A stretch of DNA of 64,000 nucleotides from Elusimicrobiota bacterium. GTDB lineage: Bacteria; Elusimicrobiota; Elusimicrobia; UBA1565; UBA9628. Positions 3,300 to 51,751 of the stretch are shown in pieces. Location: contig DAIDHI010000080.1 in the NCBI GenBank assembly GCA_027452025.1, positions 58 to 64,057 of the forward strand, read 5' to 3'. Both the position numbers and the translations under genes were made by a program. Under the pieces are notes generated by a model that saw nothing but the letters and a program-made list of their open reading frames with translations, did not search any database and had not been told where the DNA came from. How positions within the stretch are numbered: the first letter of the stretch is position 1; every line of letters starts with the position of its first letter.

Positions 3300-4082
3300 A
3301 TGAAAAGCATGCTCAACGCCCTGCAGGAGGGACGGCTCATCGAGCTGCCCGACACGGACAAGGAGAAGTCGCTCAAGCTCCTGGCCCACCTCATCGAGGC
3401 CATCCCCGATCTCGGAGGCAATCCTGAGCTTGAGGAAGCGATGCTGGCGCGCGAGCGGGTCCAAAACACGGCCCTGGGCGTCGGCGTCGCCTGCCCGCAC
3501 GTGCGGGCGGCCTCCGGCTCCGGCGGAGAGCTGCTTTGCGCCGTGGGCTGGACGCCGGCCGGCATCGATTACGGCGCCCCCGACGGCAAGAAGGTCCACC
3601 TCGTCGTCATGTACTATATCCCCGACTCGCAGAAAGGGACCTATCTCAAGGAAGTGTCGGCGCTGGCCAACGCCATCCGCAAGGAAGGAGGCATACAATC
3701 CATCGCCTCCGCCGAGGACCTGGGCTCCGTGCGCGAGCGCCTGCTCGACTGGGTGCAGGCCGCCATCGACGCGAGCGTCCCGGAGGCCAAGGCGCGCATG
3801 ATCCGGCTGGAGGCGCGCCAAGCGGCGGTGGAAGCCGCCCCGTCCGGCGCGCCGGGCGCCGTCCAGGTCCTGCCCCTGACCGTGGTCACGCTGCCCGAGC
3901 GCCATATCGTGCTGTGCGCCAACCGCGAGCTCGCCGAGTTGCTCGAGCGAGACGAGACCCTGCCCGCCGCCCTCAAGGCGAAGACGCAATTCAACCGCGG
4001 CGGCTATCAGCTGGTTTTTCGCTGCGCGGCGGACTTCGACTCGCGTTCGCTCTACGAGTATCTGGCGGTCAAGGCGGGATGA
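3300..4082 (+). CDS. PTS EIIA (fructose/nitrogen type 2, PtsN-like) domain protein with C-terminal extension
   Basis: N-terminal about 150 aa with ALGVGVACPHVR active-site-His region typical of EIIA-Ntr/Fru. Extra about 110-aa C-terminal domain of unknown function. Confidence 0.6.
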   Translation: MKSMLNALQEGRLIELPDTDKEKSLKLLAHLIEAIPDLGGNPELEEAMLARERVQNTALGVGVACPHVRAASGSGGELLCAVGWTPAGIDYGAPDGKKVHLVVMYYIPDSQKGTYLKEVSALANAIRKEGGIQSIASAEDLGSVRERLLDWVQAAIDASVPEAKARMIRLEARQAAVEAAPSGAPGAVQVLPLTVVTLPERHIVLCANRELAELLERDETLPAALKAKTQFNRGGYQLVFRCAADFDSRSLYEYLAVKAG

Positions 4083-6074: not shown

Positions 6075-6631
6075 TGCTGCTGGCGTTCTACAAGCCCTAC
6101 GGCGTGGTGTCTCAGTTCACTCCTCTGGCGGGACATCCCACCCTCGCCGGCTTCGGCCTGCCCAAGGGCGTCTACCCCTGCGGCCGCCTCGACCGCGACA
6201 GCGAAGGCCTGCTGCTGCTCACCGACGACGGGGCCCTCCAGCATCGGCTCAGCGACCCGAGATTCGGCCAAGCGCGGACCTACTGGGCCCAGGTGGAGGG
6301 GGCGGCGCAGGAAGCGGCGCTCGCCAGGCTGCGGCGAGGGCCCCGGCTTTCCGATGGCCCGACTAGGCCGTGCGAGGCCCGGAGGCTTTCGGCGGAGCCC
6401 GATCTTGCGCCGCGCGATCCGCCGATCCGCTACAGAAGGACGGTCGCCACTTCGTGGCTCGAGATCACGCTGACCGAAGGCCGCAACCGCCAGGTGCGGC
6501 GTATGACGGCCGCCGTCGGCCTGCCTACCCTGCGCCTGGTACGCGTGCGCCACGGCGGCGCCGGGCTCGAAGGGCTCGCGCCCGGAGAGTGGCGGCCGGT
6601 CCGTCCAGACACTGTCACGCGTTCGCGCTAG
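6074..6631 (+). CDS. rluE: rRNA pseudouridine synthase (RsuA/RluE family)
   Basis: [22 protein letters not shown] catalytic Asp motif and NRQVRRM motif. GTG start overlapping the upstream stop (taGTG). Confidence 0.8.
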
Positions 6632-8015: not shown

Positions 8016-8381
8016 TCAGCCGCGCCGGCGCCGGTGCTGGCGCAAAAGGCAATCGTCGGATACGACGAGGAGGCCCGCTTTGCGGGCGCGCTCTTCGCCG
8101 GCCGGGTGCGTGATCCCGTCTTGCAGCCAAAGCGCCTTCGCCTTGATCTTGATGGCCTCGTCGATCACGGGACCCACGACCTCGGGGTTGCGAAAGACAT
8201 CGACGACGTCGACGGGAAACGGGATCGCCGACAGGCTCGGATAGCACGTCTGCCCCAGCAATTCCTCGTGCCCGGGATTGACGGGAACCACGCGGTAGCC
8301 CCGCTCCTGCAGGTAGGCGGCCACGTAGTGGCCGGGACGGTCGGGCTTGGGCGAGCAGCCCACGACGGCGATGGTCTTCAT
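8016..8381 (-). CDS. CoA-binding domain protein (YccU-like)
   Basis: MKTIAVVGCSPKPDRPGHYVAAYLQERGYRVVPVNP Rossmann-like CoA-binding signature. Start moved to the internal Met. Confidence 0.7.
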   Translation of the reverse strand: MKTIAVVGCSPKPDRPGHYVAAYLQERGYRVVPVNPGHEELLGQTCYPSLSAIPFPVDVVDVFRNPEVVGPVIDEAIKIKAKALWLQDGITHPAGEERARKAGLLVVSDDCLLRQHRRRRG

Positions 8382-8846: not shown

Positions 8847-11561
8847 CTATGCGCCTTTGCTCACCTTCTCGAGAGTCAGCCAGCGGTTGGTGCCCGCGAA
8901 CTTTTGGTGCATGCGCGTGCGCGGCTCGCCGTGGGGTGCTCCGAGCTCGGCCACCTGCAAGTCGGCCAGCGCCTCCAGGCCCTTCTTCTTGAACTCGCGC
9001 AGCGAGGCCTCGAGAGCCATGCCCACTGTGCGGAAGGCCAGCAGCGTCGAGAATTGCAGGACGTAGCCGAGACCGCCGAGCTCCTCGTTGGCGATGAGCC
9101 GGCCCTCTTGCTTGGCCTTGCCCCAATGCAGCGAGGGGGAGAGATTGAAGCCCAGCATCTGATCCGGGAAATACTTGTGCACGCCTTGGGCGAAGGCCCT
9201 CGGCCCGTCGATGCCGGTGTCGTTGAACTCGGCCCAAATGACGTCCACGCCCAGAGACGCCGCCTCCAGGGCCCGCGCGATCGCGTGGTCGACGCCCGGC
9301 CCGCGCCCCCCCGGCACGGCGCCGTCCACGGCGTCGGTGCGCGCGATCACGACGAGGTCCGTCTCCGTCGCCTGGGCGGCGGCCTTGACGGCGATGAGCT
9401 TCTCGATCCACTTGTGGGTAGGTACGAGCACCTTGTCTCGCTTGCTGCCGTGATGGGCGATGATGTGGCCGCACGTGCGCTCGGCCGGATCCTGGTCCTC
9501 GAGATGCACGCCGGCGGCGCCCGCGCGGATGAGCTCGCGCGCCAGCGTGAATGTCTGCGTCGGCCCGCCGAAGCCGGCCTCGATGTCGGCGAAGATCGGA
9601 GGCGCGGCCAGGACCTCGCCGTCGCGGTCGTAGAAGTGTCGGTCGCGCGTGCCCTCGATGCCGCGCAGGAGCTCCTGCACCAGCGAGACCATGGAATGTG
9701 AAGGATATATCCCGATGTCTGGATACATGTTGTGGGCGACGGCCAGCTGCCAGCCGCTGGCGTAGATCGCCTCGAAGCCGAGCTCGGTCAGCAGCGACGC
9801 CGTCACGGCGTCGTAGGCCCCCGCCGTGTGGAGGTAGGACTCCGCCGGATCGCTCCGCCGCCGGGCGAAGCGCGCCTTGAGCAGCGCCCTCAGCTTCTGC
9901 GCCGGATGCGTTTTTTCAAGCGGCGCATACATCTTCGCGAACTGCGCCGCGGGATAGGTCCACTTCTTGAAACCTTCGCTGGGAACGGCCGCCGTCTCGC
10001 TGATCATATCTTGGCTCCATTGGCTGGCGCGCTCATAGCGTCGCTCCAGCGCCTCTCTTTGTGCGCGCTCGCCGTTCTGGCGCTGCGCGCGCAGATCCTT
10101 GAAAATCTTCTTCAGCTCCTCGTCGAACCAGCCCGCGACGAGCTCGCGCGTGACGCGCTCTCCCTCCGCGGCCGCGACGGCGTGCCTGATGCGCTGCGCG
10201 ACCATCAGCCGGTAAATCCGGTCCGTCGCCAGATCCTCCATGAAGTTGCCGATGAGGTCGCCGTGCCGGTCGTAGCCTTTGATCATCCGAGCGCCGAGCC
10301 CCGAGAGCACGCCGAATCGATATTCGATCATGGTCCGGATCGCGTCCTTGGTCCCGGCGACGGTGATCGCCCCGATCCCGGTCGGCGCGGGAGTCAGATC
10401 GGGCTTGACCTCGGCGCGCGCGGGAAACGAATGGAGCTGGTTGGGGGCGGGGAATTGGGAAATGGCGGCCTCGTGTTGATCGGGATGCCCGGTCCAAGCC
10501 CCGTCGAAGCCGCAATCCGCTTCATTCTTCTTGTCCGCGGCCAGCCGCTCCATGGCTCGTCCGTTGACCGCGGCATCGCCGCGGTCGGGAAAGAGCGCCG
10601 TCATGCCCCCGATCGCCAGCGCCCCTCGCCGATGGCAGATCTCGACGAGCCGGCGGCGAACATTCTGAAAAAAAGGGATGTCGTGCGGAATCGTGTTACG
10701 GTCCGGCAGGATCCAGCCCGGGTCGGCGAGCTTGAACTCGAGGAGGCTGGCCATATAGTCCCAGCGGCCCAAATTGAGGCCGATCGCGTGTCGGCGAGCC
10801 TCGTAGAGGATCTCCTCGATCTGATAAGCTGCGGGCAGCGACTCGATAAGATACATGATTTTCGTCGTTCCCTCCGGCACGCCGATCGCCGCCTCCATCG
10901 CGGCCAGCGCGTCCGAAAACCACCGCGCCTCGGCGGCCGATTCCACTTTCGGGATGTAGAATCCGAGCTTAGCCTGCAGCCCCGGCGAGTGGACCGCCGC
11001 TTTACGCAGGTCCGCCGTCGGGAAAAAGACCGCGACCATGTCGAAGAGCGAGGCCGACACAATCTCTCCCGGGACGGCTCGCGTTTCGTCGAGATGCAGG
11101 CCGCGGGGGCGGTAATACATAGCCTGAGCGCTCGGCTTGACGCGGGCGGTCTTGCCCGTTTGGGGGTCGGCATAGGCGAGCGTGCCGCGAATGGCCAAGA
11201 CGGTGTTTTCTTGGGCCGTCCGCACGTGCTCCCACTCGGGCGAGATGGAGTCCTCTCCATCCGGCATGCATCCCGGATCGTCGGCGTTGCACATGCCGAC
11301 CAGGATCTTCGCGTTGTCGGCCGGACCGGTGATCTGATTGCGCTGGTCCTTGGCCCAGTCCGGCAGCCGGATCTTCCAGGCCCCGCTCGTCGCCTCCGAT
11401 TCCGGGAGGTAGTCGGGCATCCGTCCTGCGCGCGCGGACGCCAGGGCCGCGCGGCGCTGCTGCAACAGGGCCTGGCGCCTAGGCTCGAAGCGCCTGTGGA
11501 GAGGCAGCAGGAACCCGCGCAAGTCATCCGGAACAATCGCGACGCTTTGTGTCGTTTTCAT
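8847..11561 (-). CDS. bifunctional malate synthase A / isocitrate lyase fusion (MS N-terminal, ICL C-terminal)
   Basis: Residues about 1-540 align with AceB (ITGP, RGLHL, GLNLGRWDY, ETLPA-like LIESLPA). Residues about 590-904 align with AceA (YASGWQLAVA, ADIEAGFGG, GVHLEDQ, TCGH in place of KKCGH, ARTDA). Single uninterrupted 904-codon frame. Confidence 0.85.
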   Translation of the reverse strand: MKTTQSVAIVPDDLRGFLLPLHRRFEPRRQALLQQRRAALASARAGRMPDYLPESEATSGAWKIRLPDWAKDQRNQITGPADNAKILVGMCNADDPGCMPDGEDSISPEWEHVRTAQENTVLAIRGTLAYADPQTGKTARVKPSAQAMYYRPRGLHLDETRAVPGEIVSASLFDMVAVFFPTADLRKAAVHSPGLQAKLGFYIPKVESAAEARWFSDALAAMEAAIGVPEGTTKIMYLIESLPAAYQIEEILYEARRHAIGLNLGRWDYMASLLEFKLADPGWILPDRNTIPHDIPFFQNVRRRLVEICHRRGALAIGGMTALFPDRGDAAVNGRAMERLAADKKNEADCGFDGAWTGHPDQHEAAISQFPAPNQLHSFPARAEVKPDLTPAPTGIGAITVAGTKDAIRTMIEYRFGVLSGLGARMIKGYDRHGDLIGNFMEDLATDRIYRLMVAQRIRHAVAAAEGERVTRELVAGWFDEELKKIFKDLRAQRQNGERAQREALERRYERASQWSQDMISETAAVPSEGFKKWTYPAAQFAKMYAPLEKTHPAQKLRALLKARFARRRSDPAESYLHTAGAYDAVTASLLTELGFEAIYASGWQLAVAHNMYPDIGIYPSHSMVSLVQELLRGIEGTRDRHFYDRDGEVLAAPPIFADIEAGFGGPTQTFTLARELIRAGAAGVHLEDQDPAERTCGHIIAHHGSKRDKVLVPTHKWIEKLIAVKAAAQATETDLVVIARTDAVDGAVPGGRGPGVDHAIARALEAASLGVDVIWAEFNDTGIDGPRAFAQGVHKYFPDQMLGFNLSPSLHWGKAKQEGRLIANEELGGLGYVLQFSTLLAFRTVGMALEASLREFKKKGLEALADLQVAELGAPHGEPRTRMHQKFAGTNRWLTLEKVSKGA

Positions 11562-11637: not shown

Positions 11638-12396
11638 CTAGATGGCGATGCGAAGGAGGTCGCGCGCCAGGCCGACCCGACGCCGACCGCGCACGAGGGC
11701 GCGCAGCTCGGCCTCCGAGCGTTCCGACAGGTGGGTCAGCAGCCCGCGCCGGCACGCGGACGCGCCAAGAGTCGCCAAGGCCAAGGGAGGCGTCAAATGC
11801 CCGGCCGCGGGCGAAAGAGAGGACAGGGTGCACTCGAGAAGGAAGAGATCGGCCTCGGCCGCGAAATCGGCCAATCCCGGATCGTAGCCGGCGTCTCCGG
11901 AATAAACAAAGCTCTTCCTCTTATACGAGAGCCGGTATGCCAGGGCCGGCGTCGGATGCGGGACCGAGCGCGCCGCGACGCGCCAGTCCGCGCCTCGCGC
12001 GTCGCGGCCGGCAGAGAGTTCCTCGACCTCAAGGCGGTAGCCCCGGGGCGACAGCCAGGGGCGATAGGCGCCGCGCAAATCGTGGAGGAATCGCGCGAAA
12101 TCCCGCGGGCCCCAGAGCCGCAGCCGCCGGCTCCTCGGGCGGGCCTCGTAGCGCAGGAAGAAGAGGAGCGCCGCCAAGTCCCCTACGTGGTCGGGGTGGC
12201 GATGCGAGATGAAGACGTCGGTCACGCGCGCCGGGTCCAGGCCCGCGCGCGCCATCTGCCGGACGGCGCCGAACCCTAGGTCGAAGAGCATGATCCGGCC
12301 GTCCAGCACGACGGCGTTGGCCGCGGCGTTGCGTACCGCAGCTTTCGGCCGCCGCGGCGCGAACGCGCTGCCTGATCCCAAGATGACCAATTCCAT
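11638..12396 (-). CDS. MBL-fold metallo-hydrolase
   Basis: ISHRHPDHVGDL (HxHxDH) and downstream His/Asp ligands. Confidence 0.75.
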   Translation of the reverse strand: MELVILGSGSAFAPRRPKAAVRNAAANAVVLDGRIMLFDLGFGAVRQMARAGLDPARVTDVFISHRHPDHVGDLAALLFFLRYEARPRSRRLRLWGPRDFARFLHDLRGAYRPWLSPRGYRLEVEELSAGRDARGADWRVAARSVPHPTPALAYRLSYKRKSFVYSGDAGYDPGLADFAAEADLFLLECTLSSLSPAAGHLTPPLALATLGASACRRGLLTHLSERSEAELRALVRGRRRVGLARDLLRIAI

Positions 12397-12417
12397 GGGA
12401 CAATGTTAGAATAACAA

Positions 12418-12476
12418 GGTGTCAGACTTTCACTTTTCACTTACCTTTAATAAGTGGAAAGTGAAAGTCTGACACC
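12418..12476. repeat. 59-bp AT-rich near-perfect inverted repeat (23-bp arms, 11-nt spacer) in the divergent intergenic region upstream of acnA
   Basis: GGTGTCAGACTTTCACTTTTCAC ... GTGGAAAGTGAAAGTCTGACACC. One mismatch between the arms. Confidence 0.8.
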
Positions 12477-12518
12477 GATCGGACCGGTCGCCGTTAAGTC
12501 GGCTCCAGGAGAAACTCC

Positions 12519-15269
<2,751 letters not shown>

Positions 15270-36389: not shown

Positions 36390-36426
36390 GCGGCCTCTCC
36401 GCTCGCGCGGAGAGGCCGCTCATTTT
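36390..36426 (+). terminator. rho-independent terminator hairpin (shared region with the 3' end of antisense RNase P RNA)
   Basis: GCGGCCTCTCCGC-tcgc-GCGGAGAGGCCGC followed by TCATTTT. Confidence 0.6.
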
Positions 36427-36799
36427 AGGGAGAGCCTGTACCCCGAATTCTGTTCCCCCCTCGCGGAGGGCGAGGATCATTTCTCTGATGCGGCTACCGA
36501 GGAGCCGCCCCGCCTCTCGGCGGGACCGCGCGGGCCGCGCGAGCTCCCACACTGCCTTGCTCCGGACGGGGTTTGCCGTGACGCCGTCCCTCGCGGGACG
36601 GCCGGTGGGCTCTTGCCCCACCTTTTCACCCTTGCACTCCGCACGGTCTGCGGAGTGCGGTTGTTCTCTGTGGCACTTTCCGTCGGCGAAGCGTATGGTC
36701 TTCGCCTCCCCGCCTTTCGACGGGCGTCCTGCCCTGCGGAGTTCGGAAGTTCCTCCCCCCGCGACGCGTCGCGGAAGGCGATCCCCCGGCTCTCCCTAA
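36424..36799 (-). ncRNA. rnpB: RNase P RNA (bacterial type A)
   Basis: Minus-strand sequence has the P1 pairing AGGGAGAGCC / GGCUCUCCCU. It has GGAGGAACUUCCGAACUCCGCAGGGCAGG (P4/P5 region), GGAAAGUGCCACAGAGAACAACCG, AAGGGUGAAAAGGUGGGGCAAGAGCCCACC, CCGUCCGGAGCAAGG and ACAGAAUUCGGGGUA. These are collinear with E. coli M1 RNA conserved regions. Confidence 0.85.
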
Positions 36800-44074: not shown

Positions 44075-44086
44075 GCGGAGCTTGAT

Positions 44087-44155
44087 GGTGTCAGGCCTTG
44101 AATTGTTTGACTTGTTTGCCGAGCAAACAAGTCAAACAATTCAAGGCCTGACACC
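44087..44155. repeat. 69-bp perfect AT-rich palindrome (32-bp arms, 5-nt loop) between convergent genes; likely bidirectional terminator / REP- or MITE-like element
   Basis: GGTGTCAGGCCTTGAATTGTTTGACTTGTTTG-ccgag-CAAACAAGTCAAACAATTCAAGGCCTGACACC. Shares GGTGTCAG/CTGACACC termini with the repeat at 12418-12476. Confidence 0.8.
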
Positions 44156-44163
44156 AAGCCCAG

Positions 44164-51676: not shown

Positions 51677-51751
51677 TGGTGGGCAGTATAGGATTCGAAC
51701 CTATGACCCCTGTCGTGTGAGGACAGTGCTCTACCGCTGAGCTAACTGCCC
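51677..51751 (-). tRNA. tRNA-Val (anticodon CAC)
   Basis: Minus strand GGGCAGUUAGCUCAGCGGUAGAGCACUGUCCUCACACGACAGGGGGUCAUAGGUUCGAAUCCUAUACUGCCCACCA. 7-bp acceptor stem, GGUUCGAAUCC T-arm, anticodon loop CUCACAC, encoded CCA. Confidence 0.9.

Follow-up and report, generated by a model that had tools for sequence, protein, structure and literature searches.

Transposition in the IS200/IS605 superfamily acts on a single-stranded hairpin, and the same has been proposed for REP/RAYT systems. The attC site of integrons is also read as a folded single strand; it is a hairpin recombination site in which short conserved inverse ends enclose a variable self-complementary interior. In Neisseria, the DUS are uptake sequences that occur as pairs in terminators.

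Classical REPs are 20-40-bp stem-loop units with a GTAG or CGTC tag at one end (PMC3733652). The same work describes RAYT-like HUH Y1 genes, the TIRYTs, which are flanked not by REPs but by TIRs sharing the sequence GGGGWSAS (Di Nocera, De Gregorio, Rocco 2013, PMC3733652). TIR repeats are also reported to occur without a gene, as moderately abundant families that form dimers and clusters and some of which are self-complementary (PMC3733652). The published TIRtron/TIR families are defined within single genomes, i.e. those of S. maltophilia and K. versatilis (PMC3733652).

The subject of the present work is E1, an AT-rich foldback lying between the divergently transcribed genes for aconitate hydratase A (acnA) and a metallo-beta-lactamase-fold (MBL) hydrolase in a 64-kb stretch of Elusimicrobiota DNA, here termed the window, together with a second copy, E2, and the hairpin family to which they belong. 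The kind of element is already known, from REPIN/REP-RAYT systems and from the TIRYT/TIRtron variant. As with REPINs and REP/RAYT elements (Bertels and Rainey 2011, PMC3116915; Nunvar 2010, PMC2817692), the copies are extragenic, non-coding and hairpin-forming, with two inverted units making up one long stem-loop; there is no target duplication, mobilisation is presumed to occur in trans through a single-copy Y1 transposase, and the location is often near gene 3' ends. TIRtrons are resembled in that GGGGTCAG fits GGGGWSAS exactly and in that the same tip bounds Y1 genes in the present data. By contrast with TIRtrons, the third base of E1 and of E2 is T (GGTGTCAG...CTGACACC ends), there is no TIRYT gene in the window, and the phylum breadth, the invariant 10-nt tip and the 121 arm types are not described in the accessible part of the TIRtron paper (PMC3733652).

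Classical REPs, which have a GTAG (or CGTC) tag and a 6-13-bp stem per unit, differ in that E1 has neither, and the present family conserves a 10-nt tip while its stems vary. The ends of E1 and E2 do carry GGTGTCAG, in which TGTC is a listed variant of CGTC (PMC3733652), but they lack the REP arrangement of stem and tail, and assignment as a classical REP was rejected. As a separate observation, long hairpins starting CGTCATCCCGGCGAAAGCCGGGA at two other loci (L036, positions 3627-3707 and 6213-6294; L196, positions 8220-8297) resemble head-to-head dimers of CGTC-tagged REPs.

With attC sites, the hairpins share short conserved inverse ends, a variable self-complementary interior, occurrence across phyla, location 3' of ORFs and, on the proposed mechanism, recognition as folded single strands. 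However, the ends are RYYYAAC...GTTRRRY in attC and GTCAGRC...GYCTGAC in E1, the arrangement being opposite with one base different; moreover E1-type copies are solitary, with no cassette arrays and no IntI, and the implied enzyme is a HUH Y1 transposase, not a tyrosine recombinase. Bidirectional terminators and paired DUS similarly comprise perfect hairpins between convergent genes with a short conserved stem sequence, but E1 and E2 are without a U-tract, E1 lies in a promoter region, and there is no link to transformation. Resemblances to attC, Tn3-type MITEs, parS, the PhoB box and uptake sequences were dropped because the defining features of these are missing.

The hairpin upstream of acnA

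A first-pass annotation of the window had called an inverted repeat upstream of acnA, the coordinates of which were confirmed exactly (Table 1). A repeat search of the window shows E1 to be a 59-nt foldback with 26-nt arms (12418-12443 and 12451-12476) that are 96% complementary and are separated by a 7-nt loop, CCTTTAA (CCUUUAA as RNA). There is no bulge in the stem, and the sole arm mismatch is T opposite G, which is G·U on the acnA sense strand. The arm subrepeats are TTTCAC-T-TTTCAC, and the element is flanked by AACAA on the left and GATCG on the right. Fold and chance statistics are far beyond random, with a predicted RNA fold of -57 kcal/mol (z = -9.6; equalled by 0 of 200 shuffles), a predicted ssDNA fold of -25.5 kcal/mol (z = -10.7), and a chance expectation of approximately 2e-8 per 64 kb for a 26-nt arm with at most one mismatch.

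Several figures in the first-pass annotation needed adjustment, while the features that they describe stand. The repeat had been given 23-nt arms around an 11-nt spacer, but the spacer is 13 nt with arms of that length, and the arms extend to 26 nt. AT-richness was correctly noted, but the GC content, put at about 35% in a 68% GC genome, is 39% for E1 overall and 28% for its interior, i.e. the region inside the 10-nt ends, the window being 68.4% GC. Proximity to both flanking genes was also correctly noted, but the distances of 40 nt to the acnA start and 22 nt to the divergent MBL-hydrolase start are in fact 42 nt (ATG at 12519) and 21 nt (start at 12396), respectively.

Table 1. Positions in the window of E1, E2 and the features of the acnA/MBL intergenic region.
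Feature	Position	Strand	Remarks
MBL-fold hydrolase gene, 252 aa	11638..12396	-	Divergent from acnA; Pfam Lactamase_B
-35-like hexamer ATGACC of predicted acnA promoter	12383..12388	+	Within MBL gene start region; consensus match only
Extended -10 of acnA (TGtTAGAAT)	12404..12412	+	Kept in orthologous loci without hairpin; E1 starts 5 nt downstream
E1 foldback element	12418..12476	.	Repeat search, RNA and ssDNA folds
E1 left tip GGTGTCAGAC	12418..12427	+	Conserved end motif of hairpin family; also bounds Y1-transposase genes
E1 variable T-rich arm	12428..12443	+	Tandem TTTCAC(T) subrepeats; complement at 12451-12466
E1 right tip GTCTGACACC	12467..12476	+	Reverse complement of left tip, from sequence
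Shine-Dalgarno AGGAG of acnA	12507..12511	+	30 nt downstream of E1; unpaired in predicted fold
acnA, aconitate hydratase A, 916 aa	12519..15269	+
E2, second family member	44086..44156	.	34-nt perfect arms, 3-nt loop, ends GGTGTCAGGC/GCCTGACACC; between convergent TamB-like and DUF2267 stop codons

E1 and E2 are the two longest inverted repeats of the window, which has no other strong hairpin. All four occurrences of the GGTGTCAG octamer in the window are ends of E1 or E2, and the two elements share the ends GGTGTCAGRC...GYCTGACACC and nothing further, the spacing between the shared ends being 39 nt in E1 and 49 nt in E2. The suggestion made in the first-pass annotation that E1 forms a repeat family with a sequence at 44087-44155 is supported, both by the same 10-nt ends at 44086-44156 and by the finding of the family elsewhere. 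E2 begins 12 nt past the TamB-like stop and ends 7 nt before the convergent DUF2267 stop, with TTGAT on its left and AAGCC on its right; its predicted ssDNA fold is -42 kcal/mol, and its arms contain the short tandem subrepeats TTGTTTGAC-TTGTTTGC. Each E2 arm (44090-44111 and 44131-44152) can also fold on itself (GTCAGGC...GTTTGAC, seven pairs of which two are G·T), with a T-rich run following; the arms of E1 do not self-fold individually.

Promoter scanning predicts for acnA a -35 element ATGACC, an 18-nt spacer and a TG-extended TAGAAT ending at 12412. Because the start of transcription is expected 6-8 nt after the -10 element, the predicted +1 is among the opening bases of E1, and the idea in the first-pass annotation that the hairpin is transcribed is thus probably right, in so far as the conserved extended -10 promoter is correctly predicted. 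The sequence preceding E1 (12397-12417, TGTTAGAATAACA) is near-palindromic, with a TG-extended -10 on both strands, an arrangement that is kept in the orthologous loci considered below. On the opposite strand, TGtTATTCT, whose TATTCT box precedes the MBL ATG by 11 nt, resembles a promoter for the MBL gene that would be back-to-back with that of acnA and near-leaderless.

Some other features of the window may be recorded here. Adjoining the MBL hydrolase gene and acnA is a 904-aa ORF (8847-11561, minus strand) with N-terminal malate synthase domains and a C-terminal isocitrate lyase/PEP-mutase domain, which, from its domain content, would be a single-polypeptide glyoxylate shunt; the same fusion, of 915 aa, is present in one of the orthologous loci (L120). 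The window also has a class A bacterial RNase P RNA (36423-36797, minus strand; 182 bits with Rfam) and a tRNA gene (51680-51751, minus strand).

Orthologous acnA loci

Three orthologous Elusimicrobia acnA loci (L120, L121 and L122; 68 kb in all), with AcnA identities to that of the window of 78%, 75% and 72%, respectively, were used for comparison; named Elusimicrobia provide the next best AcnA matches, at 78-67% identity. The divergent MBL-hydrolase/acnA pair is kept in two of the three loci, and the intergenic spacers are 27 nt (L120), overlapping start codons (L121) and 217 nt (L122). The hairpin is absent from acnA in all three, and neither GGTGTCAG nor a comparable hairpin was found anywhere in the 68 kb. 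By contrast, the extended -10 box aaATGtTAGAATA is aligned and conserved in all four sequences, i.e. in the window and the three orthologous loci. Since the orthologous loci have the same -10 box yet lack the hairpin, E1 is, by sequence comparison, a lineage-specific insertion in the leader of acnA, downstream of the -10 box and upstream of the ribosome-binding site. The orthologous sites are seen empty, although at 72-78% AcnA identity they are too diverged to fix the junction to the base.

The hairpin family

Scanning of genomes, one per species, for GGTGTCAGRC-N26-56-GYCTGACACC gave at least 119 loci from many phyla, and a stricter metagenome scan, with two additional fixed bases per side, gave at least 120 loci with at least 135 elements, compared with an estimated 3.5 or so by chance. 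Nearly all matches of both scans are hairpins, such that hundreds of hairpins have these ends; the matches include Elusimicrobia, Acidobacteriota, Bacillota, Proteobacteria, Actinobacteria, Planctomycetota and Omnitrophota. Numerous copies in random contexts, which the first-pass annotation had named as evidence against an acnA-specific site, were therefore found at the level of the family in other genomes and metagenomes, the window itself having two copies in 64 kb. Among the matches listed, no other family copy has an acnA or MBL neighbour. Only seven viral contigs match, and a phage origin was rejected. Many short metagenomic contigs terminate at an element, as expected for repeats.

The 149 E1/E2-type elements listed comprise 121 distinct arm types. 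Pairing of an arm with its own partner extends over 11.0 of 14 positions, compared with 4.5 of 14 between different elements, and at most arm positions all four Watson-Crick pair types are present. Judged on the aligned ends and arms, the family, including E1, thus combines invariant ends, GG(T/G)GTC(A/G)GRC, with freely varying self-complementary arms. Subfamilies with many near-identical copies have unrelated flanks, their loop lengths varying via deletions and insertions at the hairpin tip; TTTCAC-type arms like those of E1 are present on other high-GC contigs, at the unrelated loci L047 (an Elusimicrobia MAG), L171, L173 and L182. The GGTGTCAGACACC 13-mer dominates the proteobacterial matches, and Bordetella has GGTGTCAGACACC repeats; the 'Bor' repeats of Bordetella are published (PMC1590033).

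Most of the copies are located at the 3' ends of genes. In high-GC loci, for which third-position GC was used to read the coding strand, 38 of the matches listed are in convergent, 34 in tandem and 8 in divergent contexts, which places E1 in the rare (divergent) class and E2 in the common (convergent) one. Convergent genes flank 47% of the confidently placed copies, whose distance from the stops is usually between a few nt and a few tens of nt. Flanking A-runs and T-runs in low-GC hosts resemble those of bidirectional terminators, and there is weak A enrichment at -5, -3 and -2 in high-GC hosts. Where the direction of transcription is known, the mismatches comprise 10 G·U and 11 A·C; as these are equal, there is no sign of RNA-level selection in the family. 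No target-site duplication was seen at E1, at E2 or at the two Sporomusa copies described below, and none was consistent in the at least 135 metagenomic elements. All-against-all BLASTP of the ORFs of the 119 loci revealed, as recurrent neighbours, common families only and no transposase, and a search of the fetched loci for paired ends enclosing a gene at long range found only neighbouring small elements. BLAST of a Bacillaceae member against plasmids gave no match.

Variation within and around the arms takes several forms. Arm positions 17-24 tend towards TTTTGACA, a sequence complementary to TGTCA in the tip. At L002, L019, L063 and others, an inverted form of the inner arm motif recurs in the flanks (M'-tip-M ... 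M'-tip-M), so that the tip of these members has two possible positions, at the base of a single long hairpin or at the apex of two smaller hairpins. One Treponema MAG locus (L081, 2193-4536) has a tandem array of dozens of approximately 25-28-nt units, each with GGTGTCAGAC(A/G)CC and then a GCCTTAYCCGCCGCT-like sequence. On a contig of 71% GC (L231), two perfect palindromes of 117-124 nt (1141-1257 and 2188-2311) flank a single ORF, their arms containing three direct GGTG(Y)C motifs with A5 tracts between them (GAAAAAGGTGCCACG-GAAAAAGGTGTCG-GAAAAAGGTGTCAGAC). Hairpins without the GGTGTCAG tip but with arms of 7-8-nt tandem repeats, the units being GTTAACNG, AGGCAGT and GGCAAAG, are present at L097 (4593-4679), L124 (562-628) and L153 (72-145); arms built from short tandem repeats thus seem to be a wider phenomenon.

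Association of the tip with Y1 transposase genes

The tip GG(G/T)GTC(A/G)GRC bounds RAYT-like Y1-transposase genes at six or more independent loci (L275, L271, L267, L270, L146 and L253-265). The gene at L146, found by a profile search of all ORFs, has perfect 19-nt inverted repeats, TTGGGGTCGGACCAAGCTA, and the same repeat bounds the gene in every copy of its close homologues examined; metagenomic Y1-transposase loci are bounded by GGGGTCGGACCAAGC. Distant homologues, all annotated as 'transposase', were obtained by tblastn against annotated plasmids. Of these, the Iodobacter gene has AATAACTGGGGTCAGAGCAAA, the Pseudoalteromonas gene AAAGGGTCAGAG and the Rhodospirillum rubrum gene AAAAGGGGTCAGACCCC on both sides, the last being the G-version of the GGTGTCAGACACC 13-mer; in Skermanella, three tandem copies of AAATGGGGTCAGAG lie upstream of the transposase gene. 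The Y1 proteins score 69-76 bits against the NCBIfam model 'REP-associated tyrosine transposase', just under its cut-off of 80, which fits with their being relatives of RAYTs rather than canonical RAYTs.

The Sporomusa termitida plasmid gene has the ends GGGGTCAGGCCTCAC/GGGGTCAGGCCTTAC, which are the first 12 nt of E2 save position 3. The same plasmid has a 980-bp copy that carries the gene and a 393-bp copy in which an internal deletion has removed most of it; both have identical GGGGTCAGGCC ends, with flanks that are unrelated immediately outside the GGGG. This pair provides direct evidence that the tip-bounded unit moves and yields deletion derivatives.

All the transposase-flanking repeats found have G at position 3 (GGGG...), whereas this position is T in both E1 and E2 (GGTG...). 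Inside one hairpin subfamily, however, the tips GGTGTCAGAC, GGGGTCAGAC and GGGGTCGGAC interchange, which ties the T-variant to the G-variant of the transposase genes, and hairpins with GGGGTCAGRC ends are present among the fetched loci. Profile searching of all ORFs found no Y1-transposase gene in the window, and approximately 1.6 Mb of element-bearing loci contained none apart from those at L146 and L049. The RayT gene at L049 (Anaerocolumna), 0.8-1.2 kb from GGTGTCAG elements, was rejected as the mobiliser, as L049 has different repeats; its homologues at L250 and L251 have other inverted repeats, and the motif does not flank them.

Two further observations concern the transposase loci. At L146 (7192-7273), the left inverted repeat is duplicated within a perfect 41-nt tandem repeat. 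The TIRYT genes at L263-L265, L268, L271 and L274 adjoin type II toxin-antitoxin pairs, of the PIN/PhdYeFM, PemK/MazE and Doc types.

Discussion

The tip that E1 shares with TIRYT-type transposase genes leads to its interpretation as a gene-less, REPIN-like derivative; it is probable, though short of certain, that E1 is a miniature of a RAYT/TIRYT-type mobile element, moved by HUH Y1 transposases of the IS200/IS605 superfamily. E1 would then consist of two inverted element ends placed back to back without the gene, as in a REPIN or a 'TIR dimer', and its movement in trans would have depended on a Y1 transposase that acts on the folded single strand, as in IS200/IS605 transposition and as proposed for REP/RAYT. 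It would have landed by chance past the conserved extended -10 box of acnA and ahead of the ribosome-binding site, replacing the spacer/-35 region of the putative back-to-back MBL promoter. If the acnA promoter is as predicted, the mRNA would thereafter start with a very stable 5'-terminal stem-loop. Any effect on acnA, most plausibly a shielding of the mRNA from 5'-end-dependent decay, would be a by-product of the insertion, with no dedicated design.

The first-pass annotation had raised two roles specific to acnA. The location of a palindrome between two divergent genes, overlapping the predicted transcription start, is what might be anticipated of an operator through which a dimeric transcription factor controls acnA and/or the MBL-hydrolase gene. 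However, the hairpin is absent at the orthologous promoters despite their conserved -10 box, the same ends recur at E2, where the window has unrelated convergent genes, and elsewhere in hundreds of contexts that are likewise unrelated, the half-site spacing is unlike in E1 and E2, and a near-perfect palindrome of 59 nt far exceeds known operators in length; the operator proposal is thus not supported and its likelihood is considered to be very small. The other proposal, in a broadened form, is of a co-opted RNA hairpin in the acnA 5' UTR, acting as a 5' stabiliser, an RNase III site or an aconitase-binding structure. The predicted +1 maps to the opening bases of the hairpin, the predicted fold is strong and leaves the Shine-Dalgarno sequence free, and the lone mismatch is G·U on the acnA sense strand, all of which favour an RNA role. 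By contrast, an IRE is characterised by a CAGUGN loop of six nt and a stem in which a C is left unpaired, and E1 has neither an IRE-like CAGUGN loop nor a C-bulge; there is no Rfam 15 match at the gathering score, and searches of the window and eight loci at gathering and permissive thresholds gave, for the hairpins, only sub-threshold generic miRNA-precursor hairpins. G·U does not predominate over A·C among the mismatches of the family (10 versus 11), the hairpin is not kept in relatives, and the acnA transcription start is itself a predicted one. Aconitase binding in particular finds no support, and an RNA role in general is unlikely. An outward hybrid promoter, with CTGACA in the hairpin end as its -35, was rejected, there being no suitably spaced -10 at E1.

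Other explanations apply to the family as a whole. Its members could be host-selected bidirectional terminator or insulator hairpins, or sites bound by a conserved DNA- or RNA-binding protein, with the GC-rich 10-bp clamp kept by function, and the high proportion of copies between convergent genes near stops, the A-run/T-run flanks in low-GC hosts (as in bidirectional intrinsic terminators), the enrichment of A upstream of elements in high-GC hosts and the covariation that preserves arm pairing are consistent with this. Neither E1 nor E2 has a U-tract or T-run, however, and neither is called as a terminator, terminator calling at E2 returning only small sub-hairpins inside one arm; E1 is in a promoter, where termination would be harmful, and there is no G·U bias in the family. 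Moreover, transposase genes are bounded by the identical tip, as is a deletion derivative whose flanks are unrelated, which suggests that the conserved ends stem from mobility. A terminator/insulator role is compatible with mobility, in that a mobile element may also terminate transcription, but it leaves the promoter position of E1 and the transposase-bounding tips unexplained, and as the primary explanation we regard it as improbable. Small size and terminal inverted repeats would also fit a MITE derived from a DDE-type insertion sequence, e.g. one that is Tn3-like; Tn3 repeats start GGGGTCTGAC, which we take the first 10 nt of E1 to resemble. This origin is made highly unlikely by the absence of target-site duplications at E1, E2 and the Sporomusa copies; further, no DDE transposase recurs near the elements, and the tip instead bounds Y1 (HUH) genes.

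Interpretation of E1 as a gene-less derivative of a Y1-mobilised element therefore appears preferable, although arms of such great diversity are not usual in a simple family of transposon origin and could reflect selection for hairpin function. As far as was found, the presence of the family in Elusimicrobia, the T-variant of the tip, the combination of a 10-nt invariant end with very diverse arms, and the breadth across phyla are apparently undescribed; literature searches with the end sequences as 13-mers, 11-mers and 10-mers returned unrelated primers only. As a special site at acnA the finding is ordinary, and it is the family behind E1 that is of moderate interest.

More tentatively, and with doubt outweighing conviction, all hairpins with GG(T/G)GTCAGRC ends may form one pan-bacterial foldback superfamily, mobilised by TIRYTs, in which recognition is of sequence at the tip and of structure elsewhere, and which hosts reuse as terminators or 5' caps. 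On such a reading the arms would be free to diversify because only the tip is read by sequence, as in attC. If this is correct, hosts would repeatedly have reused insertions as portable bidirectional terminators or, at acnA, as 5' mRNA caps. The strong bias towards convergent gene ends allows a mobile-terminator role to be asked about directly.

The results connect extragenic hairpins of very wide distribution with TIRYTs, a branch of the RAYT-like transposases of which, to our knowledge, there is only a brief description and no biochemical test. The invariant 10-nt tip is a simple search key for annotation, and experimental systems are at hand in the Sporomusa plasmid pair and in the copy-rich culturable hosts Bordetella petrii, Achromobacter and Niallia. 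For the acnA locus itself, a dedicated regulator or aconitase-binding RNA would be replaced by a mobile hairpin that, on the predicted promoter, happens to cap the acnA mRNA.
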